Source: Octopus vulgaris (taxonomy: Eukaryota). Taken from it: a stretch of DNA of 64,000 bases. The notes below the pieces were generated by a model. That model had not been told where the DNA came from. It worked only from the letters and a program-made list of their open reading frames with translations, and did no database searches. Both the position numbers and the translations under genes were made by a program. The stretch is from contig OX597826.1 of NCBI GenBank assembly GCA_951406725.2, positions 42,532,001-42,596,000 of the forward strand. The letters are read 5' to 3'. The first letter of the stretch is position 1; each line of letters opens with the position of its first letter. Positions 35,072 to 60,715 of this stretch are shown in pieces.

Positions 35072-35448
35072 GCACCCCTACGTGCTTTCATACATGTCCG
35101 AATATATATATCATTCCATAGTAGACAGCGAAAAAAAGTTCTTTTGTTTTTTTTTCAAAAAAAATAATCTGTTAGTCACGGTAGTGAAAAGCCGGAACAG
35201 GACAAGTCCTGGGATTAAATTACAACAACAACAACAAAAACAACAACTAAAACAACAACTAAAACTGAAAATCCAGTTTACCTTAATACATTTCCAAATA
35301 GTTGGGCTGTTTTTTGTTTGGTTTTTTTGTATGTTGTTTATATCCTTGTCATTGAAATTATTGTAGTTATTCTTGTAATTATAGTTTTTTTATGTTGCTG
35401 TTGTTGTTCTAATCGGTGGTGGTGGTGGCGCGGTATTTTGAATTTGAA

Positions 35449-35869
35449 AGGTGGCGAGCTGGCAGAAACGTTAGCACGCCGGGTGAAATGCTTAGCGGTA
35501 TTTCGTCTGCCGCTACGTCGTGAGTTCAAATTCCGCCGAGGTCGACATTGCCTTTCATCCTTTCGGGGTCGATAAATTAAGTACCAGTTACGCACTGGGG
35601 GGTCGATGTAATCGACTTAATACCTATGTGTGTCCTTGTTTTGTCCCCTCTGTGTTTAGACCCTTGTGGGTAATAAAGAAATAGGTATTTCGTCTGCCGT
35701 TACGTTCTGAGTTCAAATTCCGCCGAGGTCGACTTTGCCTTTCATCCTTTCGGGGTCGATAAATTAAGTACCAGTTACGTACTGGGGTCGATGTAATCGA
35801 CTTAATACCTATGTCTGTCCTTGTTTGTCCCCTCTGTGTTTAGCCCCTTGTGGGTAGTAAAGAAATATA
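35449..35869 (+). mobile_element. Family B SINE containing a second copy (nested or tandem 3' portion)
   Basis: Outer TSD ggtattttgaattt at 35432 and 35870; inner repeat begins ggtatttcgtctgccg at 35497 and 35684. Confidence 0.85.
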
Positions 35870-40838: not shown

Positions 40839-41104
40839 AATAATAGTTAAATAAATAAACAAATAGAGTTAAACAATATTTATTTAAAAAATAAATAAAA
40901 TAATAATTTTTCTTATAGAAAAAACTCTATTCACTAAATTTGAAACTTAAAACATTAGGATTATCTCCTACAACACATTTATTATGTTAAATATTTAATA
41001 TTTAAGGTAAAAAAAAAAAGAGTAAATAGATAGAAATATGTATTTATCTGTGAAGATATAATTTAGCTTTAAAAACATTAATAAACTTACTGGTAATAGA
41101 AGAA

Positions 41105-42282
41105 TTGGTGACGCGCATCCTCGATGATAGTGATGCTGTTGACATCGTTTTATTGGACTTTGCCAAAACTTTTGACTCGGTAAACCACCGCCTATTACTT
41201 CAAGCATATAGTTTCCATCCGGATATTGTACGATGGGTTGCTGCCTTCCTCTCAGATCGCTCCTTCCAAGTCCAAGTTAATGGTTCGCGGTCCGACGTCT
41301 CCAGTGCGAGCAGTGGCGTGCCTCAAGGTTCAGTGCTTGGGCCTTTATTGTTCTTAGTCTTCATAAATGACTTGCCCGACGACCTCACGCAACACACCCT
41401 TCTATTTGCCGACGATGTCAAATTGGTCGCTCCTCGCGGTGATATAGAGGATTTTCGTCGATGCCTCCACCAAATTTGGAGGTGGTCTAACGAATGGGAC
41501 CTGTGTCTGAACGTGTCAAAGTGCTGTCATCTGCCTGTTGGCTCTCCTCCTGCAACTCAACTTGATTTCGAGCCGGGTCGTCTGCTGCTGGAGAGGACCG
41601 ATCAGGTAAAGGACCTGGGTATCTTGGTGGATTCCTCCATTTCGCCTTCGGCCCAGTGCGTCCATGCTGCCAACAAAGCACGCGGAATTCTGTTCTTGAT
41701 TCGACGGTCATTCGGAATGCTCACAGAAGCTATATTCCTACCGCTCTATGTCACGCTGGTGAGACCCATATTGGAGTACGGGATTCAAGCCTCTTCTCCT
41801 TATCTCCTCAAAGACATACAGCATCTCGAAAGAGTCCAGAAGCTGGCTACCCGCACGGTTCATGGTCTCAAGAATTTGTCTTTTGAAGAAAGGCTGAAGA
41901 CGCTCGACCTTTATTCTCTAGAAAAACGCCGCCGCCGTGGTGATCTCATTCTCGCTCACAACATCATAAGCGGAAAGTGTAACCCTCGAAAGAGCTGTTC
42001 TTCACTCCTGCTCCAGAGCGTCGGCTGCGGGGTCATTCCGAAAAGCTCTATCTGCGACGATTTCATCTCAATCGAAGGAGAGGGGCTTTCTCCGTCCGGG
42101 TTGCGGATCTGTGGAACCAGACGAGATGGTGAAGATGCCGACGACCGCTTTGTTCAAAGTCTCCCTTGACCACAAGTGGCCTGAACTCTTTACATGAACA
42201 CCACCCTGTACATAACTCCATGTCCCCCTACATGGCCTTGCTTTTTGCTTTTTGAGCCAAAAAATTAACTAAGTAACTAACA
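41105..42282 (+). pseudogene. 5'-truncated CR1-group LINE (reverse transcriptase and C-terminus)
   Basis: LDFAKTFDSVNH, SGVPQGSVLGPLLFLVFINDL, LFADDVKL, KDLGILVD, LERVQKLATR, LEKRRRRGDLI; frameshift near 41985; (TAAC)-like tail. Confidence 0.92.
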
Positions 42283-42945: not shown

Positions 42946-43485
42946 CTACTTTGTTACCGTATGTTTTAAGTCTGAAAGTTCAAAGTGGACTAAACCTTTG
43001 ATATCCAACCAAACAGACAACAACACCCTACGTGGGTAAATACCTTCTTTAGCCTGGGGTGCCGGTGTTTCTGCTTTCCCTACCCACTGTCTTCGGTGCT
43101 TGGCATTTTTAGAGAGAACCGACTTCTCGTCACCAGTTGCTATTCGGTCCAAAAATGTTCATTCGTGAGACGTGACAGCAAAGAAGAGCACACATTCACT
43201 CTCTGTGCGAGATTAAACTCGGAAAGTTTGTGAGGAACCCATTGACCCAATTTGCTGATTTTTCCGATTATACGGAAGTGTCAATGAGTGGTTGAAAGAC
43301 CAAATCTAAGATTTTCTGCTGGTTCCTCAACAGTTACGATAGAATTCTGTTCTATCAGGGTTTGCAGGACGTCTTCGTCGAGCTCTACAGATCTTCCGGA
43401 ACGAGGCTCGTCTACTAGGATGTAGCTTCTGGCTCGGATTTTCTGGAACCACCGTTGACACTGGCATATGCTTATTGCCCGATCC
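42946..43485 (-). pseudogene. Mariner transposase internal fragment (second family)
   Basis: QCQRWFQK..DEPRSGR..WVPH..DRIATGDEKSV..RVLLSVWLDIKGLVHFEL. Confidence 0.88.
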
Positions 43486-46400
43486 CAAGGATTTCTGGTA
43501 ACTATCCAGATACCCCGTCCAAAGGTTCGCCTAAACAGGTTGGTCAACTGACTTCCATCGACGCCCAGAGTCTCTCCCAAGACGTCGTCTGACATAAACT
43601 CTACCAGCCCGCTAAAGAAATCCGCTGTGGGACTCCTGTTGCCAGTATTGCCCACCAGAGGGAGCAGCTTGAGTGCCTGTCGACACTCTAACTGCCACTC
43701 GCCCTACCTAGGTCTACGCTTGATCCATGGACCAATATTCCGTAGGGATATCAATTGAGGAAAGAAAAACCTCACGTACGGTGACCACACCTGCTCACCA
43801 CCCAAGTAAAGCCAGAGGTGCCTAAGTCTTAGCGCGAATTTGCGCATCCTCAGCCACGGTATCCCTAGCCCACACTTTATCGGTTTTTGGCAGCAGACAG
43901 AGCGCCTTACCAGAGGTCCTCTTCCCTTCCACAAAAAGTGGAATAGGAGTCGTTCCAGCTTCTTCTTCCACAAATCGGGGCAAGGTACGACAGTCAGGCG
44001 GTAGGTGATAAAGGATACTATAAACACCCGTGCCACCTCCGCCCTTCTTGTCAGGGATAACGCCCTTCCAGACCAGATCCGGGTTAGGGCAATCACTCAA
44101 CCTGTAACCTCGCTCCAATTCTCTATCTGGAGGTCTGGACCGAACCCGACCCCTAGCATCTTAATCGGACCTTCCTTTCAACGTCCCACGACGTTATTGG
44201 GCGGCATCGATTTGTCCCTCCAGGTGCCGAGTTGCAAACCGACTGACTTGTCCTGATTAATTACTGCTCCTACCACCGCTTCGTATCCTTTGATGGCGTT
44301 TTCTACACTAGATAGCTGCCCTTCATCGGATACGATGATGGTGATGTCATCCGCGTACGCAGTAGCTGTTCTTCCGCCCTATAGATCATGCGAAACACCC
44401 CCTACCGCTTCCACCCTTCGCAGTAATGGCTCATGAGCCAGTACATACAAAAGTGGAGACAGGGGACATTCCTGGCGAACTGAGCTCTCAATATTGAACG
44501 GTTTCTTCTCGAAACCGTTCACCCGGACGACAGATGGTATGTTGCTGTACAAAGCAGCGATCCAGCCACGGAAAGTCGGGCCTAGCCCGGCCGCCTCGAG
44601 AACCGCCGCCAGATACCATGGTCGACCCTATCAAATGCTTTAGACTGGTCTAAATGCACCAGTGCCCCACCTTTGTCACAGATTTTACCCACCCTCTCTA
44701 AGGAGTAGCGTATGAGGTGGAGATTGTCGTGTATCGACCTACCTGGGATAGCGCAAGCTTGCACTTCACCAACAAGGTTTGCGCTTTTCCGACCCGCGCT
44801 AACCTCTTTGCTAGCTCATTGGCCAAAATCTTTAACTCTGTATTTAGCAGCGTTATGGGCCTAAAGTTATTTATGATAACCTCCTTGCTTGGGTCCTTTC
44901 TTATCAGCGTCACCCACCCCCGACTTGCAGCTTTAACTAATTCTCCTATTCTGCTGCCAGTTGGCATAGATGCTGACCAGTAGGTGCCCGAACAAGTCTG
45001 GCATGCTTTTATAAAACTCATAGGGAAAACATCAAGTCCCGGCAATTTGTCCCCGAGAGCAACTCGACAACCTCCGCAGCCGTGATCGGTCCTTCACAGC
45101 TCTCAGCCTCTCGTGCCAAGAGTCGCGGCCCACCAGCCAGGAAGTCTCGAAGGGCCTTACCATGTTCCAGCGCATCACCCCTCCCGAACAACTCATCAAA
45201 GTGCTTGTAAAAAACCTGACACATCCATTCTTGTCCTTCAGTCGAACGCCCATCTTCCTCAACCAAAGACCTAATCGTAGTATCATTTCCACGCAAGGTT
45301 TCTACCGAGCGTGCCCATCCGGCAACATTGATTTCTTCGCGGCCCAATGCATGAACTTTAGCCTAAACTCTGCACCCTTCATGTCTGGCATTGAGTTCTA
45401 AGGCCAAAATTTGGGAAGCAGAGCCCAATCTCAACGCCTCTTCTAATGCCTTAACTAAGTTCCCTTCTACTCTGGCCCTATCTAAACTTAGCTCCTGACT
45501 AAATCTGATAGTCTCAAATCAGATGGCTCTTTTAAGGGCAAACCACCACCTGTTATTTAACACGGCGCCAGTTAATGCCCTCATCACTAACTCCTTAATC
45601 CGGCTACGGTATGTCGCGCAAGCCAAAATAGATTTGTTAAGCTTCCAATTGCCGGATCCCTTTCTATATGCTTTATCTATGTGCATCCTATATGTCACTA
45701 ATTTGTGATCCGTGTAGGAGACCTGAAGAAATTATGGACAACTAAAACTAGCCTTATCTTTAATTCGCACCACTATCCTATCTATGTAAGACTTGAACGC
45801 CCCGTCGCCACTCATCCAGGTCCACACTGGAACGCTCGGGTGATCGAGTCTATGACGATCTGCCAGCTGAAAGCTCTAAAGCAGATCGGTGAAGCGTGAG
45901 TTAACACTCCTACCAGTCGAGCCACCGTTATCCAGACGTGCATCCCGGATAGCGTTGTAGTCTCCTAACACAACTAATCTTGGACGTCACGAGAAAACCC
46001 TCGAGGCACCGATAGAAATCAACCTGTTTACTTTCTACACCAGGTGCATAAAATCCGACCAACCTGAAAGCTTTATTGTTGTATGTTAAGTCAAGGACGA
46101 CCAGCACACCTTCAGGATCTATCAGGTCATCCCATAAATTCTGTCCGAATTTTTAATAAAGAAAACAAGTGATCAAATGTTATATTTAATTGAAATTTAA
46201 TCATCAATGTACTTTCCCTGATTATCTATGACTTCCTTCTATCTATTTACTAGCTTTTTAATCCCTTCAATGTAAAACTCTTTTGGTTTCAAAGCGAAGA
46301 ACTCTGAAATATCAATTTCAACCTCCTCCTGACTTGCGAAAGTTATGGCCCCCAAAGGATTCTGTAAACTACGAAACAAATGGTAGTCTGATGGAGTAAG

Positions 46401-47654
46401 GTAGGAGAATAAAGTGGATGATGAATTTTTTCCCAACCAAGCTCTTCGATCTTCTGTGATGTGATCTTTGCAGTGTGGGGTCGCGCATTGTCCTGATGAA
46501 ACATCACTCGATTCAGTAAAGCGGGTCTTTTTTCTTCAAAGCTTGGTTCAAACGCTCTAATTTCTGACAGTAGACTTGAGCATTGATTGTTGCATTAGGA
46601 AGTAACAATTCAAAGTGAATTACTCCTTTTCAATCCCACCAGATAGAGAGAAGAACCTTTTTCCCATAAAGTTTCCTTCTCGGTTGTGGTTGAGCTTTTT
46701 CCCTTTTACCAAGCCACTATTTACGACGTTTAACATTTCGATAGAAGATCCATTTTTCGTCATCAGTCACAAGTCTATCCAAAATGGTTGAAATGAGTTC
46801 GCGAGAAAGGAGAGAAGAGCAGATGTCAACTCGGGATTTGTAGTTGCTTTCGGACAATTCATGAGGCACCCATTTTACAAATTTAGAAACCTTTCCAAGT
46901 TGTTGAAGATGACGTTGTATGGTTTGAACTAAGCTTTATTGCCAATTCTTCAACTGATAATGCAGAATTTTCTTCAAGTAATGCCTCAAGGAGCTTCACA
47001 TCAAACTCAACTGGACGTCCTATTCGATCTTCATCTTCAAGGCTGAAATCTCCACTTCTGAATTGTGAAAACCATCTTCTGCAAGTTCTTTCATTTAAAC
47101 ATTCTTTCCCATAATCTGAGTGTATGTTCAGAGTCGCTTCGGTTGCAGAGTTTCCTTTTTTGTACCCATAAAGCATTATGTGCCTCAAATGCTCTTTGGT
47201 TACTTCCATGTTAGAAGGGGTTTTAATGAAAGAAATTTTAATTCTATTATTCTGTAAAATAATATTTAATTAGTTTAAAAGTACACTAATGCATAAAAAT
47301 AATTTTTAATTCCGTTAGACATTCTAAAATACTATTAAATTTCATTCAGTTTTAAAAAAAGGTAAAATTGGACCGAACTTATGGGATGACCTGATATAAA
47401 GACTGTACTTGTCTGCAGAGACAAGAATTTTCGAAGCAGAACAACTATTCTCCTCGACCTCCGGTCTGTCTAGGGGACATGATTTTCTCATAGCCATTCA
47501 AGAGAGTCGGAAAAGCTTGTAGCCTGTCCAGCTTGGTCTCTGTAGCAACCATCACATCTATATCTTGTGACTTGAGGTTGTCGAGAAAGCAAGATTGCTT
47601 CCACTTCGAGCTCAGGCCACGTACATTCAAACAACAAAGTTTAAGTGAAGCCAT
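43485..47654 (-). pseudogene. LINE ORF2: AP endonuclease and reverse transcriptase, frameshifted and interrupted by a mariner
   Basis: CLNVRGL..DVMVATETKL (APE); PGLD; NFRPITLLNTELKILA; GRSIHDNLHLIR; LDQSKAFDRVDH; YADD at 44346-44357. Confidence 0.92.
46122..47394 (-). mobile_element. Complete mariner element (1273 bp) with degenerate transposase
   Basis: TIRs tcaggtcatcccataa..tccgaa / gaccgaacttatgggatgacctga; TA duplicated; ORF from 47209 MEVTKEHLRHIMLY..WVPHEL..TDDEKW..HQDNARPH..PSDYHLF. Removing it restores LINE peptide STVFI|DPEG. Confidence 0.95.
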
Positions 47655-49088
47655 TGAAAAATAAAAAGGTTCCTACCTTTTTGTCGGGGAGGTAGGGGTC
47701 GACCTTGGTCTTTCTGAGGACCCCTCTCCCGTTGGTTTTTTTTTTTTTTTTTTTTGGTGTCTTTAGTTGTTTTGGCACCCTTGCTATCCGTCGGATGTCG
47801 ATCGGATGCCTTTCTTTTAGTTGTCTAAACATAGTCTCGGCTGTTTTAGTGAATCTCATAGATAAGTCCTTATGTTCTGGGTACATCTTTGTCGTATGGT
47901 GTAATGAGATCGTGGTATGTATCTATTGATTTTTAGGATTGTATTCCACCGTTATTTTTTTGTCTTCTTCATTAGTTTTTGGGGTTGAGGAGCGGGTTTT
48001 TTTCCTTTCTGTGTATGTAGTGGATGTGAGTTTTTTGGCGAGTGAGTTGTGAGTTGGGTAGTCAGAATGCATCTTTTTGCCCTTTTTTGGGCACTCACTT
48101 CGGATTTTCTCTCCTGGTCGTCTATTTCCATGTTGTCGCCAGGAAGGAGAATTTTACCTTTGGGCGATGATGTAGGCGTCGGTGTGGGTGTCGATGCGGG
48201 GGTGGGTAACTTCTTTTTTATCCTTTTTCTCTTCCTCATTTTCTGTGGTACTGGTTTCCAAGTGGGGTTCCTCTGTGGTAGAATGGCCACATTTGGCCCT
48301 TATGTGACCCTTCTGGCCGCATTTAAGACATCGAGGTTTCTTCCCTCGACCTGTATTTAAGACATCGAGGTTTCTTCCCTCGACCTGTATCCGTAGGGCG
48401 ACGTCTTCACCTACGAGCACTCTTTCCGGCATTTCCTCTAGGTCACATTGGGTTGCTTGTATTAACACCTCCACGCTCTTCCCAAGCCAATTTTGGGGAG
48501 CAGAGCGTGTGATCTGTAAATTATTCACTTTGTCTTCCCGGTTATAACAAAGGGAAGCTATTACCCAGGCGACATCAATTTCTGGTGGCACTTCTGTAAT
48601 TTTAATCCGGGACGTCCTTCGTCCTAGATAGGTTGCCAAAAGTGTCACCTCATCTGTTTTTAACGTTAACAATGAGTGCTCGCGGGCTTTCTCTATGCTG
48701 TGAAGCCTTACCTCTAAAGAGGCGTATTTTTTTCCTCGAGTCACGTAGGAGACATATCTCCAAATGGGTCCGAGGCATTTTTCTATTTTCTCCCGTGACA
48801 TATTTTCCATTTTGCGGTTTTCTACGTCGTAACTTTTATATATAATGGTTTTGCTCATAGTTTGTTTGGTTATATCGCCTGGCGAGGGAAGATTTGGATG
48901 TCGCTCCCACTTACTTTTAACATGCCGAAGTATGACTGTAGTTCTGTGCGTGGTATTTCTAGTATTTCTGTTTTGATTTTCGTAGCTACCGCGAATCCTT
49001 TTGTTATATTTGATACTTCCATCTCTTCCTGTGGTGTAACTTTGCTCTCAAAGAGCGAAATTTTTTCCTTAATAATTTCTACCGACAT
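47641..49088 (-). pseudogene. LINE ORF1 (gag-like, CCHC zinc knuckle), frameshifted
   Basis: PRCLKCGQKGHIRAKC; basic low-complexity C-terminal region; ends overlapping the ORF2 ATG. Confidence 0.88.
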
Positions 49089-49946
49089 GATAGAAAATAA
49101 TAAAAAATTTTGTCTTTCAGAGAGAAAAGAACAATGTTTTTTTGTTTGTTTTTCTTTTTGTAGGTAATACTCCAAAATAGTTTCAAATCCTTGCCCCCTG
49201 TCGGGGGAGGAACACAGTTTTAAATTAAAACAGTTCACAAATGTATAATTCAGTGAAAAAAAATTTGCAAAAGAAAATTTTCTCTCTTCGAAGAGGCACA
49301 CGAATAAACATTTCGAATCCTTCCCCTGTCGGGGCGGAACACAGTTTAATAAAAGCAGTTCACAAGTGTATAATTCAAAAGAAAAATTTTGTCTCGTCAG
49401 AGAAACACAACAATAAACTGTTCAAATCCATTCCCCGTCAGGGGAACGAACACAATTCAATAAAAATTGTCCAAAACAAACCATAGTTCATAACTGTAGT
49501 AAATATTCCAATCTTCCACACCCCCGTAGGGAGAAGGAACACAAGTTCAAAACCAACTGTAGCCTGCTTGGCAGGCTACAGTTTAACAAGGTAAACAATT
49601 CAACAATACCTTTGAAAAGGAAAATCAACAAAACACTTCTCGTTCAAATGAAGTTGCCGCTCGTACGACACAATTTGCGTACCTTGCCGACTGTTTTTCT
49701 TTATTTGGCACACAGGCCATGACACCTCAACCGGAATCAAAAATGATTTAACACTAACAAAATTACCTCGCTGATTGTATTTCCTTTATTCAGCCCGTAG
49801 GCCATAACATAGAGGGGACAGCACAAGGACAGACGAAACACTACTGTGGGGACAAGAAACACAGAACGAACGAATGAAGGATGGATAATAACAATGAGGA
49901 TGAAATGGTTCGCCTGCTCCTCATTCGCAGGCGGTATCATTTTAAA

Positions 49947-50175
49947 GGCGGCGAGCTGGCAGAAACGTTAGCATGCCGGGCGAAATGCTTAGCCGTATTT
50001 CGTCTGCCGTTACGTTGTGAGTTCAAATTCCGCCGAGGTCGACTTTGCCTTTCATCCTTTCGGGGTCGATAAATTAAGTACCAGTTACGCACTGGGTTCG
50101 ATGTAATCGACTTAATCCGTCTGTCTGTCCTTGTTTGTCTTCTGTGTTTAGCCCCTTGTGGGTAGTAAAGAAATA
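49947..50175 (+). mobile_element. Family B SINE (Tx1-like tail)
   Basis: TSD ggtatcattttaa (49933) / agtatcatttaa (50176). Confidence 0.9.
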
Positions 50176-50576
50176 AGTATCATTTAACTGTTTTTCGTTT
50201 AACGCTTATAAATCAGTTCTTTTTTCCTTTTTGCATCTGTTTTTACAGTTATTTAAAATTTTTAACTATTTACTTACTGTTTTTTTTTTACTATTTCATG
50301 TACGACAACAGGTCGACGTACTCTACTACTGGCGGCAAGTCGTCGAACTCGACGCGTACTCCCGTTGGGTCCATCGTCTTTCCGAACTGTTCTCGTAGTT
50401 TTTCACATCTCTCGTCGTCAATAACTATTGCTTTGATACTCTCTTGATAGTATTCCGTCGTTAGTCTCTCTCTTATTACTGATTTCATTTTTGTGATTTT
50501 CTTCTCTATCTCTGTACTTTTCGAATATGTTACTATACGCCATTTATGTTTTGGCTCTTTTTATTTATTTGTTTCT

Positions 50577-50807
50577 TATTTCTTTATTGCCCACAAGGGG
50601 CTAAACATAGAGGGGACAAACAAGGTCAGACAAACAGATTAAGTCAATTATATCGACCCCAGTGCGTAACTGGTACTTATTTAATCGACCCCGAAAGGAT
50701 GAAAGGCAAAGTCGCCCTCGGCGGAATTTGAACTCAGAATGTAGCGGCAGACGAAATACTGCTAAGCATTTCGCCCGGCGTGCTAACGTTTCTGCCAGCT
50801 CGCCGCC
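50577..50807 (-). mobile_element. Family B SINE (Tx1-like tail)
   Basis: TSD ttatttatttgtttct at 50561 and 50808. Confidence 0.9.
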
Positions 50808-51170
50808 TTATTTATTTGTTTCTGTAGTCCCACTTGTTTTTCCACGTTGGCTTCCTTTGATGTTGTTGGTGTCTCATGTTGTGCTTCCTATTTACTCTCC
50901 TTTCTTTTCTTTAGTGGACTCTTTGGCGGTGAGTTCACGTCTTCTTTCCTGGACACTTCTCACATACTAGGTTCTTGCTTCGGCATTTTGCTTCTGCTCG
51001 TCGCCCTGCTGCTGTTGTTCCTTTTCACTTTTATCGTCGTTCTGGGGACACCTTGCTCTCATGTGTCCCCTTACGCCACACTCTGGTAACATGTTGGAGG
51101 TCTTCCCTCCACTACTACTCTCAATTTCACCTCCTCCGCTATCTTATGCAAGATTGTAAACTGACTTGAA

Positions 51171-51583
51171 GGATCTTTTCAGTTTGAACGGCAGTTTTTT
51201 CTAGCGGTGTCATATGAAATTGTCACCCATAATTATGACCCTAGAATCGATCTATTGCATTTCAATCTGTTTTAAGGTTAGGGTTAGGGGTGAGGGAAGG
51301 GTATCTTTTTTTCTTCACAAATGTAAATAAACCCAATCTGTTTCTTAAACGAGGAACATATTCATACAGCACAGAATGCTTTTTAACTCAATAGACGTCA
51401 CTGATTGGTTGAAATTGCAGAAATGGAAGAAAAAAACAACAAATATCTTACAAACTATAGAATTTTCTCAATAAAGCCAAGAGAAAAAGATGTTTTATAA
51501 ATACATTCTACCAGTATACGAAGTTTAAAATTTTTTAATTACCTAGAAATTGTTAAAAACTGCCGTTCCAACCGAAAAGATCC
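51171..51583. mobile_element. MITE with ~28-bp TIRs, GG termini and ~8-bp TSD (Merlin-like)
   Basis: ggatcttttcagtttgaacggcagttttt / aaaaactgccgttccaaccgaaaagatcc; flanks gacttgaa / aacttgga; internal (TTAGGG)2. Confidence 0.8.
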
Positions 51584-52450
51584 AACTTGGATGACCACTT
51601 CGAGGTCTTAGCCCCATCAGTTTACCTCTTTCTCCTTCGTCACTTTCAACACCTTCACATCCTCCTCCATATTATACAGGATGGCTGCCACCAGCCATGC
51701 CTCCTCAATCTCTGGGGGTACTCTGCCAATCCTTACTTTGGCCACTCGTTTGCAACAGTAAGTCGGCAGAAGTACCCACTCTGGTATCCTTAGCGCCACA
51801 GTGGAGTGGTTTATTGCTTCTTGCTCACTAGCGTATTTCCATCCTCTCGTGTAAAATGTTGTAAGGCTTTTTACCTCCTTTAAACATTCCTCTATAGCCT
51901 CTACCCTGGCTATTTCTACGTTTTTTTCGATGTCGTGGACAGCGTTCTATACACCACTGTCCGCTTCATCACTCTCGCTGTTAAATTTTCTAGCGGTGTC
52001 AACCTCAAACTGGTTCCATCTTTCTCTATGAGTCTGTTGAATTCCTTCAACTTCCTCTGCTCCATCTTTATCTCTCGTACCAACAACACATCAGCTGTCA
52101 AACTTCTTCCAGTGGCTGAAGCATAGCTGCCGGCTGGAACTGGCTTGCACTCCATCCTCTGCTTCTTGTCTGCTTCACCCATGAATGGGGAAGAAAACAA
52201 TTGTAATTTCATAGACAAAAATAGCAACAACAATTCAACAGTTTAATAATGATACTCAACAAGTAAGTTCACCCTTACGAAAGACCTTCAACAAGTATAT
52301 AACAATTTAACTCACAGGGATCAAAAATGATTAAAAAAAACACCAAAAATAGCTCGCATGAAGCATAATGGAATGATGTAAACACAAGTTAAGACAATAA
52401 CATATGAAAAATATTATTTATTTCAAATATTTATATACATTATATATTAC

Positions 52451-57729: not shown

Positions 57730-59703
57730 CTATTGCCTCCGAAAATAATGCCTCAAGATTGCCCCACGAATCTGGATATTCCTTATAAAACGTACTTCAT
57801 TAATGGCTTCCCTAAATCCATCCAAAATTTTATCAGTTTCAACGCGGGTGGAATGGAACTTTTTCAAAGATGCATAGGTAGGAGGCTTTTGATCATCGCT
57901 GTACTTCTTAGCATGTTTGTGCTGCTTTGTACCACCATCACCCCCACCACTATCATTCGTTTTTGATGTTGAATGAGTGATGGAGGTACTGTTGTGAGTG
58001 TTAATACTGTCTTCGTTGCTAATTTTGCTACAACTGCTGTTGCTATTGCTATAATCAATGCTGTTTCTGTCATTGGTATCGTTACTGATGTTGTTGTTGT
58101 TGTTGTTGAGGGCAGTGGTGCTATTTTTACTGCAATTGGTGTTATTAATATCTTTGTTCTTAGAGTCTGGATTTGGATTTTTACTTTCATGGCAGTTGTT
58201 GCTATTTCCAAAGCTATTAGTGTTGTTGTTACTGTTGCTATTTTCATTGATTTTCTTATTATCATTACCTTTCTTGTTGCTGCTGTTGTCATTACCCTTC
58301 TTGCTGCTGCTGCTGTCATTACCCTCCTTGCCGCTGCTGTTATCATTACCCTTCTTGCCGCTGTTATTGTTATTATTCTTTTTGCTGCTGTCGTCATTAC
58401 CCTTCTTGTTGCTGCTGTTGTCATTACCCTTGTTGTTGCTGCTGTTGTCATTACCCTTGTTGTTGCTGCTGTTGTCATTACCCTTCTTGTTGCTGCTGTT
58501 GTCATTACCCTTCTTGTTGCTGCTGTTGTCATTACCCTTGTTGTTGCTGCTGTTGTCATTACCCTTGTTGTTGCTGCTGTTGTCATTACCCTTCTTGTTG
58601 CTGCTGTTATCATTACTCTTCTTGCCGCTGCTGTTGTCATTACCCTTCTTGTTGCTGCTGTTATCATTACCCTCCTTGCCGCTGCTGTTGTCATTACCCT
58701 TCTTGTTGCTGCTGTTGTCATTACCCTTCTTGTTGCTGCTGTTGTCATTACCCTTCTTGTTGCTGCTGTTGTCATTACCCTTCTTGTTGCTGCTGTTGTC
58801 ATTACTCTTCTTGTTGCTGTCGTTGTCATTACTCTTCTTGCCGCTGCTGTTGTCATTACCCTTCTTGCTGCTGTCGTTGTCATTACTCTTCTTGCTGCTG
58901 CTGTTATCATTATCCTTCTTGCTGCTGTTGTTGTCATTACCCTTCTTGCTGCTGTTATTGTTATTATTCTTTTTGCTGCTGCTGTTATCATTATCCGTCT
59001 TGCTGCTGTCGTTGTCATTACTCTTCTTGCTGCTGCTGTTGTTATTACCCTTCTTGCTGCTGTTATTGTTATTATTCTTTTTGCTGCTGTTGTTGTCATT
59101 ACCCTTCTTGCTGCTGTTATTGTTATTATTCTTTTTGCTGCTGCTGTTATCATTATCCGTCTTGCTGCTGTCGTTGTCATTACTCTTCTTGCTGCTGCTG
59201 TTGTTATTACCCTTCTTGCTGCTGCTGTTGTTATTATTCTTTTTGCTGTTGCTGCTGCTACCATTCTTACTGCTACAGCTGGTGTTGTTGTTACTGTTCT
59301 TACTGCTGGCACTGTTATTCTTACTGTTCTTACTGCTGGTGCTGTTATTATTGTTACTGTTCTTACTGCTGCTGTTGTTATTGTTACTGTTCTTACTGCT
59401 GGTGCTGTTGTTATTGTTACTGTTCTTACTGCTGTTGTTGTTATTGTTACTGTTCTTACTTCTGCTGTTATTATTGTCACTGTTCTTACTGCTGCTGTTG
59501 TTATTATTACTGTTCTTACTGCTGGTGCTGTTGTGGTTATTATTATTATTATTATTATGATTATTATTAGTGGCAGTACTATTAACTCCAACTGTTACAG
59601 TTGTTGCTACTGATTTACTGATTGCTGTTGTTGCACTTGATATCATCTTTTTTGCAGCTGCTGCACTCAGTGTCGTAGCTCGTTTTTTGTTATTTTTTGT
59701 CAT
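57730..59703 (-). CDS. Possible Asn/Ser/Lys-rich repeat protein (657 aa) built on a 27/30-bp minisatellite; coding status uncertain
   Basis: Open frame of (SSNKKGNDN)n plus ~60 aa of non-repetitive C-terminus. Other frames are also open across the repeat, so ORF length alone is weak evidence. Confidence 0.4.
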   Translation of the reverse strand: MTKNNKKRATTLSAAAAKKMISSATTAISKSVATTVTVGVNSTATNNNHNNNNNNNHNSTSSKNSNNNNSSSKNSDNNNSRSKNSNNNNNSSKNSNNNNSTSSKNSNNNNSSSKNSNNNNSTSSKNSKNNSASSKNSNNNTSCSSKNGSSSNSKKNNNNSSSKKGNNNSSSKKSNDNDSSKTDNDNSSSKKNNNNNSSKKGNDNNSSKKNNNNNSSKKGNNNSSSKKSNDNDSSKTDNDNSSSKKNNNNNSSKKGNDNNSSKKDNDNSSSKKSNDNDSSKKGNDNSSGKKSNDNDSNKKSNDNSSNKKGNDNSSNKKGNDNSSNKKGNDNSSNKKGNDNSSGKEGNDNSSNKKGNDNSSGKKSNDNSSNKKGNDNSSNNKGNDNSSNNKGNDNSSNKKGNDNSSNKKGNDNSSNNKGNDNSSNNKGNDNSSNKKGNDDSSKKNNNNNSGKKGNDNSSGKEGNDSSSSKKGNDNSSNKKGNDNKKINENSNSNNNTNSFGNSNNCHESKNPNPDSKNKDINNTNCSKNSTTALNNNNNNISNDTNDRNSIDYSNSNSSCSKISNEDSINTHNSTSITHSTSKTNDSGGGDGGTKQHKHAKKYSDDQKPPTYASLKKFHSTRVETDKILDGFREAINEVRFIRNIQIRGAILRHYFRRQ

Positions 59704-60715
59704 TATTCTTGCTGTTGTTGTTGCTAATATTTATTGTGTTGTTGCTACAGTTGTCGTCATGAACAAATACTGATGCAGAGCACTCTTTGTTGTTGTCAAT
59801 GAAAACCCTGTTGCTTTCGTAGCACCAACATAGCTGCAAAATTAAACAAAACTCCAATTTTAAAAAAATTACTCTATTGTAAACATATACAATAACAACA
59901 AAAAGCCTCTATGAGAAAACTTAACCTGCTAGAATTAGCAGCCAAATCTCAAACCCTACTCCTTCATCATCAAAAACAAAAGATGCTTAAGATACTTCTA
60001 GATACATTATGTCTGAATAAAAGATATGACAATTATGGATTCTCATGGATTCTCTCCATCTTCTAGCTCTTGGATGTCTTTAATGGGGTTAACCTTGATG
60101 AAGGCATTCGTGCCAGGTCTCCCCCCCTTCTTCCCAATTGATATCCCTTGAAAACTGGTCATAGGTATTGTTCTTCCTCAGTACCCACATCACTACCATC
60201 TTATCATCATGCCGGCCACTTTCACCCACCCTTATATAAGGCAGGGTATCTGTGTATCTTCATTATAGCAAGACACCTATTCTTGTCCCTCTGTCATACT
60301 ATCACTCTCCTAACACCTGACATAAAGCCAACTTTCCCCCTTCTCAAAAACTAACCCAGTCACCTACCTATAAAGTTGAAGGGACTTTTTCCATTTCTTG
60401 TTCTTTTTTTTTTTTCCTCTCTTGCAAGTTATTTGGCAACTTCACAAGTGTCAGCAGCATGAATAAAGCATCCAGTACCCTCTGAGAAACGGCTGACATT
60501 AGGAAGGACATCTAAACTCAGAAACTATGCCATAGCTAATGGTGGAGTATGGATGCAGTCCTGCGACTCGTCAGATCCTATCAATCCATCCAACACGAGC
60601 CAGCATCGAAAATAGATGTTGTATGATGATGATGATGATGATGATGAAATATAAAGGAAATACTTCATTTTGCATGAAAAAGCGAATTTTTTTGTATTTC
60701 CTCAGTGGTAAGCAA

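Follow-up and report, generated by a model that had tools for sequence, protein, structure and literature searches.

Structure of the element

The window analysed here comprises 64,000 nucleotides of Octopus vulgaris contig OX597826.1 and is animal DNA rich in microsatellites. Positions 49778-52360 hold a decayed LINE-like element on the minus strand, interrupted by two SINEs and one MITE. With these three insertions subtracted, about 1,677 nt remain, counted from 52360, in agreement with the 1.7 kb of the original prediction. Read along the minus strand, the element consists of a 5' region (52183-52360), a broken but complete ORF1, a TAG stop, an A-rich UTR and a tail with AATAAA. The N-terminal half of ORF1 (51584-52182) contains frameshifts, stops and a PPEI..W motif and is predicted to be tandem RRM-like. 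It is separated by the MITE (51171-51583) from the middle part, which holds a CCHC knuckle and a charged linker (50810-51170), and SINE A (50576-50809, minus strand) in turn separates this part from the C-terminal domain and stop (50291-50560). The first part of the 3' UTR (50177-50290; 60 of 103 nt are A) is followed by SINE B (49945-50176, plus strand) and the tail (49778-49944). The distance from the stop to the end of the element is 270 nt with the insertions excluded, as had been predicted. Beyond the tail lie an 84-nt remnant (49694-49777) and a neighbouring two-ORF LINE of the L1/Tx1 type (43490-49693), both on the minus strand.

The 5' end had been placed at 52390 and has to be moved. 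Alignments of related sequences reach only ~52358; in run X1 of the public contigs described below, one variant-bearing piece extends to 52358 and depth drops from 403 to 48 over the final bin, placing the end nearer 52360. With its several stops, frameshifts and three insertions, the copy is defunct, and there is no indication of a host function for it.

The MITE (51583-51171) has 29-nt terminal inverted repeats that are 93% alike and is covered at very high depth. SINE A (50809-50576) and SINE B lie on opposite strands and are 91.5% alike. Within their target duplications, runs of 12 and 9 nt match exactly, the whole duplication of SINE B spanning 11-12 nt. Exact matches of at least 9 nt occurred in a fraction of 0.00015 of ~20,000 random pairs, so the SINE duplications are unlikely to have arisen by chance. 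One intact target duplication is common to the sequences left and right of SINE B. Members of the SINE family also lie at 2377-2603 and, as a tandem dimer, at 35448-35867, besides the copy at 49945-50176. GGTAT or GTAT starts the target duplication in three of four complete SINE insertions, which hints at a target preference.

ORF1 and its homologs

ORF1 starts with an ATG at 52182 and its frame is broken by stops and frameshifts. The motif PPEIEEAW lies inside a 109-residue open stretch (51946-51620), and the knuckle, of the form CX2CX4HX4C (51091-51048), is crossed by a 2-nt frameshift. The knuckle region gives a weak Pfam match to zf-CCHC (E = 0.026), and three public contig runs contain 7, 8 and 7 contigs that lack 2 nt at 51081. 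A C-terminal block (50557-50294) is followed directly by the TAG (50293-50291), confirming the stop that had been placed at 50291.

A full HMMER search with the 109-residue stretch as query retrieved 144 homologs at E ≤ 0.001. Three of these match the C-terminal block and one (P0013) matches ORF2. The block is 48% identical to P0128 over 83 residues (E = 2e-20), and two of its three matching proteins, P0128 and P0030, terminate at most two residues from the stop. The stop at 50291 is thus the natural end of ORF1 and no truncation. In the annotation, both proteins appear as gene models with long open frames, of 386 and 404 residues, respectively. Names could be attached to 13 of 20 homologs that were looked up, and all 13 come from Octopus species. 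In a word-index search, 0 of 65 candidates were related to the C-terminal block, and the P0128 query yielded 2 of 8,000.

The product of ORF1 is predicted to be an RNA-binding protein with an RRM-like plus CCHC layout. A structure model of P0030, built from a 34-sequence alignment with a mean pLDDT of 69.6, finds its best matches among tandem-RRM proteins, though these are modest (best E = 2.5e-4, low TM-scores). The P0030 profile also matches CCHC knuckles, and leads from the atlas point to zf-CCHC and ZCCHC3-type RNA-binding clusters.

The 21 listed differences within ORF1 fall on codon positions 1, 2 and 3 in the proportion 6/11/4, with at most three of them silent, a tally that is no test of selection; it is compatible with neutral decay of this one copy and uninformative about selection across the family.

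Several homologs have unusual architectures. P0013 joins the ORF1 core to an out-of-frame late piece of ORF2, occurs on 1.8-kb contigs and has three cluster members; it is an internally deleted two-ORF element, so such copies do occur. The gene models P0006 and P0079 fuse ORF1 to long non-ORF1 sequence, probably through annotation artefacts and possibly through exonisation. Gene model P0001 contains two copies of ORF1.

The neighbouring LINE and clade assignment

The ORF1 core of the element is 36.8% identical to that of the neighbouring LINE over 125 columns (E = 2e-26), consistent with the earlier description of a degenerate ORF1 with PPEI..W and CCHC motifs that is clearly diverged from the neighbour's. 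A quick tree of 98 rows, from which homologs with short matches were left out, places the element in a group of nine rows (SH-aLRT 93) and the neighbour in another of 36 rows (SH-aLRT 95). In this tree, 53 of 95 inner branches are open. Because the cores are only 37% identical and fall into different groups, the element is not a deletion product of its neighbour.

The two elements also differ downstream of ORF1. In segments of the neighbour, Pfam recognises RVT_1 (E = 9e-10) and, below the curated cut-off, Exo_endo_phos (E = 9e-4), whereas the three minus-strand frames of 50290-49778 have no Pfam match at all, which bears out the reported lack of any APE or RT trace. Among solved structures, the neighbour's RT is best matched by human L1 ORF2p (E = 1e-14), with R2 at 1e-6. 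Its ORF2 begins directly at the end of ORF1 (ATG at 47654). Within the window, no pieces of L1/Tx1 ORF2 were found besides those of the neighbour.

The element is predicted to belong to the Tx1 clade, on the basis of its ORF1 homology to the neighbour, the RRM plus CCHC layout and the L1-superfamily RT of the neighbour, and not of an RT tree. ORF1s with RRM and CCHC motifs are linked to Tx1 in the available part of PMC5203782.

The neighbouring LINE is itself damaged. Two decayed insertions (46130-47390 and 42950-43490) interrupt it, and beyond the second of these the 3' end is lacking; from the motifs of their transposases, we take both to be mariner-like. Its 5' UTR contains a tandem duplication of ~130 nt (49181-49465) whose units are 72% alike.

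The 3' end and the head-to-tail arrangement

Immediately after the ORF1 stop, 110 nt contain stops in all three frames. The tail had been described as an intact LINE-type tail with AATAAA. The signal is present at 49789-49784, and the description can be refined in that the tail lacks poly(A) and shares its last 60 nt with the tail of the local SINE (0 of 2,000 shuffles score as high). The fold of the whole tail is no better than that of shuffled sequences (z = -0.34), with one small hairpin at 49933-49911. A compensatory base pair in this hairpin was dropped from consideration, as the variants may be private to the locus.

The window contains a further LINE on the plus strand (41054-42260), truncated at its 5' end; it has an open RT frame of 371 residues, carries a short repeat at the 3' terminus and, from its RT motifs, is presumably of the CR1 type. 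The tail bears a weak likeness to the 3' end of this LINE at ~42220, reached by 59 of 2,000 shuffles and chosen after the fact, and this 3' end is not a convincing source or donor of the tail.

The 84-nt remnant beyond the tail consists of a 53-nt head-like piece and a 31-nt tail-like piece, after which the head of the full LINE begins. The head-like piece (49774-49726) matches the first ~52 nt of the element (52360-52310) in 40 of 52 columns; no other duplication was found in the flanks, and this one may represent the 5' end of the element itself. The tail-like piece is equalled by 1 of 2,000 shuffles. A 14-nt head motif, built from its two matching sites, does no better than chance (49 of 100 shuffles), and a tail motif was likewise constructed from the two sites that it matches. 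Rfam gave three weak matches, all far below gathering scores, and the idea that the head piece is the target of a known snRNA was rejected, there being no Rfam family for it.

The same tail-to-head joint is thus found two times in succession, first where the ORF1-only copy meets the remnant and then where the remnant meets the full LINE. Each of the three contig runs has a variant-bearing piece that extends 46-51 nt across the tail-to-head joint (pieces spanning 49727-49857), while a depth of one to two loci retains the letter of the window there. The joint probably exists at another locus, as judged from these contigs. Taken together with the double ORF1 of P0001, the array suggests tandem insertion next to kin. 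Tandem, target-preferring insertion has a precedent in SINEU elements, as described in the available part of PMC4494074.

Relatives in public contigs

Relatives of the element were sought in four public runs aligned to 49500-52420 at 80% likeness. The raw-read run X22 gave just 36 reads. In each of the contig runs X1, X4 and X7, all 30 bins were covered, so that relatives of every segment are present in three of the four runs; long related pieces are ~82-91% alike. Contigs with a letter other than that of the window numbered 6/10/10 (X1/X4/X7, here and below) at 52280 in the 5' UTR, 25/22/20 at 52144, 67/62/58 at 51754 in the conserved core, 9/14/12 at 50388, 9/9/9 at 50297 near the ORF1 end, 3/10/9 at 50250 in the UTR, and 5/8/6 and 5/7/5 at 49911 and 49924 in the inner tail, figures that come from 40 listed of 646 variant rows, depth being no measure of copy number. 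The outer tail at 49835-49845 is represented by 34-59 contigs (34/45/43 at 49845).

The inner tail lies 135-155 nt from the end and is seen in no more contigs than the ORF1 end (3-8 vs 7-14). Full-length LINEs that are truncated at their 5' ends leave far more 3' ends than ORF1s. The lack of over-representation of the inner tail therefore fits a short ORF1-only family and not a 5'-truncating LINE of 6 kb.

The extents of individual pieces, taken from the alignment-end column, follow the edges of the insertions, though some long pieces may stem from this locus in a different haplotype or species. A related contig present in both X1 and X4 covers 50220-50561 at 85% likeness, runs across the stop and ends at the edge of SINE A; another reaches 50191 (X7). 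Variant-bearing pieces stop at 49943-49944, the edge of SINE B, in X1 and X7 and at 50561-50563, the edge of SINE A, in all three runs, and a relative's piece stops at 51587-51588, the edge of the MITE, in X7. Because the pieces end at the insertion edges, there appear to be relatives without the insertions that cover both sides of SINE B. One piece of X4 runs into SINE B, which we read as the same locus from another species.

The original prediction had called for copies with the same ORF1-UTR-tail junction. Both sides of the junction are covered up to the edge of SINE B; the joint itself is absent among the 15 listed of 2,718 joints (24 of ~514,000 pieces), all of which concern the SINEs or the MITE. 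On balance, the contigs speak for a short family with ORF1 only, in which about ten copies are recognisable.

Elsewhere, none of 22 candidates in viral contigs and none of 33 in bacterial genomes was confirmed as a related locus. One of 16 metagenome candidates (L001) was an unrelated bacterial contig of high GC content with no match to the window and was rejected.

Origin of the ORF1-only structure

The element is probably a dead copy of an ORF1-only, non-autonomous, HAL-like LINE family. The independent family envisaged in the original prediction is backed by multi-copy, dispersed segments with a common 5' boundary, a natural ORF1 end, a separate lineage and the abundance of the tail, and lacks a second copy of the UTR-tail joint among the joints listed. 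An ancestral L1/Tx1-type element would have lost ORF2 once. The 1.7-kb RNA would still have been transcribed from the 5' region, and the element's own ORF1 protein would have been produced and have coated that RNA. The ORF2 protein of an autonomous relative would recognise the conserved last 60 nt in trans and use target-primed reverse transcription to copy the RNA, and it would also mobilise the SINE with the shared tail. Insertion beside kin, either at a preferred target or at the 5' end of related elements, would produce the head-to-tail array. Some observations count against such a family. The outer tail has many more relatives, so autonomous elements with the same tail may exist; P0013 shows that copies with internal deletions occur; and no link from the tail to an L1/Tx1 ORF2 was obtained, the 3' end of the neighbour being missing.

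The main alternative is a one-off internal deletion, in which the element would descend from autonomous Tx1-type LINEs whose ORF1 is followed by an A-rich spacer and would have lost its ORF2 at or after insertion. P0013 is an example of such a deletion, the adjoining 84-nt head-plus-tail remnant may itself be a local one, and the missing second copy of the UTR-tail joint among the listed joints agrees with this account. However, a private loss of ORF2 requires a breakpoint within ~15 of the 270 nt, coinciding with the site of SINE B, where the target duplication is intact. The inner tail is also not over-represented, and the neighbour's ORF2 starts at the end of ORF1, where this element has 110 nt with stops in three frames. 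We therefore regard a one-off deletion as unlikely.

Considerably less likely is a chance juxtaposition or a chimera, whether a LINE broken at its 3' end that lies beside a separately inserted, 5'-truncated tail or an element whose tail was taken from another LINE clade or a SINE. The abundance of the outer tail, its occurrence in the SINE and its weak resemblance to the CR1-type 3' end point in this direction. Against it, overlapping variant-bearing pieces span 49780-49910 and 49879-49943, and a single target duplication flanks SINE B on both sides; a borrowed tail, moreover, would change the donor alone and leave the ORF1-only reading standing.

Two further readings are very improbable: an ORF1 gene domesticated by the host, which would account for homologs whose gene models have long open frames, and copying by segmental duplication instead of retrotransposition. 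The present copy has stops, frameshifts and insertions, and related sequence ends at the 5' boundary of the element, where the drop in depth argues against duplication with flanks.

Relation to known ORF1-only elements

The element most closely recalls HAL1 of mammals, which encodes only ORF1p and has several independent origins, according to the part of PMC5753468 available. In both, a LINE 3' end follows a lone ORF1, and both are non-autonomous. HAL1 derives from mammalian L1, whereas the element described here has a molluscan host, an RRM-like ORF1 with a CCHC knuckle and a tail that lacks poly(A). An origin from the ORF1 of mammalian L1 finds no support, as no such Pfam match was obtained and the named homologs are all from Octopus.

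HeT-A and other telomeric elements of the Jockey clade in Drosophila are likewise ORF1-only, take ORF2 from relatives and form head-to-tail arrays, and repeated loss of ORF2 among telomeric elements is described in excerpts of PMC13534243. The octopus copy differs from these Jockey-clade elements in showing no sign of a telomere, and its array has three units. In the accessible text of PMC5786205, HeT-A, HAL1 and Ag-Sponge are classed as ORF1-present bipartite non-autonomous LINEs of the Jockey, L1 and CR1 clades, respectively. Ag-Sponge of mosquitoes is thus a similar non-autonomous element but of the CR1 clade, and that text names no Tx1-derived case.

In Octopus, 80 families of L1-Tx1 LINEs are listed in the supplementary table of PMC13282606, as far as that source was available. 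They have a homologous ORF1 and the neighbour is of their type, whereas the ORF1-only copy lacks ORF2. The terms 'ORF1' and 'non-autonomous' are absent from the main text of PMC13282606 and its one supplement. No Tx1-derived or molluscan ORF1-only family was found in the available portions of PMC13282606, PMC8967140, PMC10294476, PMC9115989, PMC4758252, PMC11203168 and PMC5203782, though one may already be catalogued in Repbase or Dfam. The ORF1-only strategy itself is already known from mammals and insects. If the proposed family is real, L1, Jockey and CR1 would be joined by a fourth LINE lineage with this strategy, which would also extend to a new phylum, and the case would support the repeated evolution of elements that keep an RNA-coating protein and borrow the enzyme. 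The 60-nt ending common to the element and the SINE would offer a handle on the LINE that drives a large octopus SINE family.

A broader scenario is possible but doubtful: octopods may have seen a radiation of Tx1-derived ORF1-only elements that share the 60-nt tail with tiny head-plus-tail elements, an abundant SINE and autonomous partners. These elements would insert beside one another in head-to-tail arrays, much as HeT-A does but away from telomeres, and many of the 144 ORF1 lineages would be without ORF2.

Elsewhere in the window, a 27-nt tandem repeat at 57730-59730, probably a minisatellite, contains long open frames of up to 666 residues on the minus strand.
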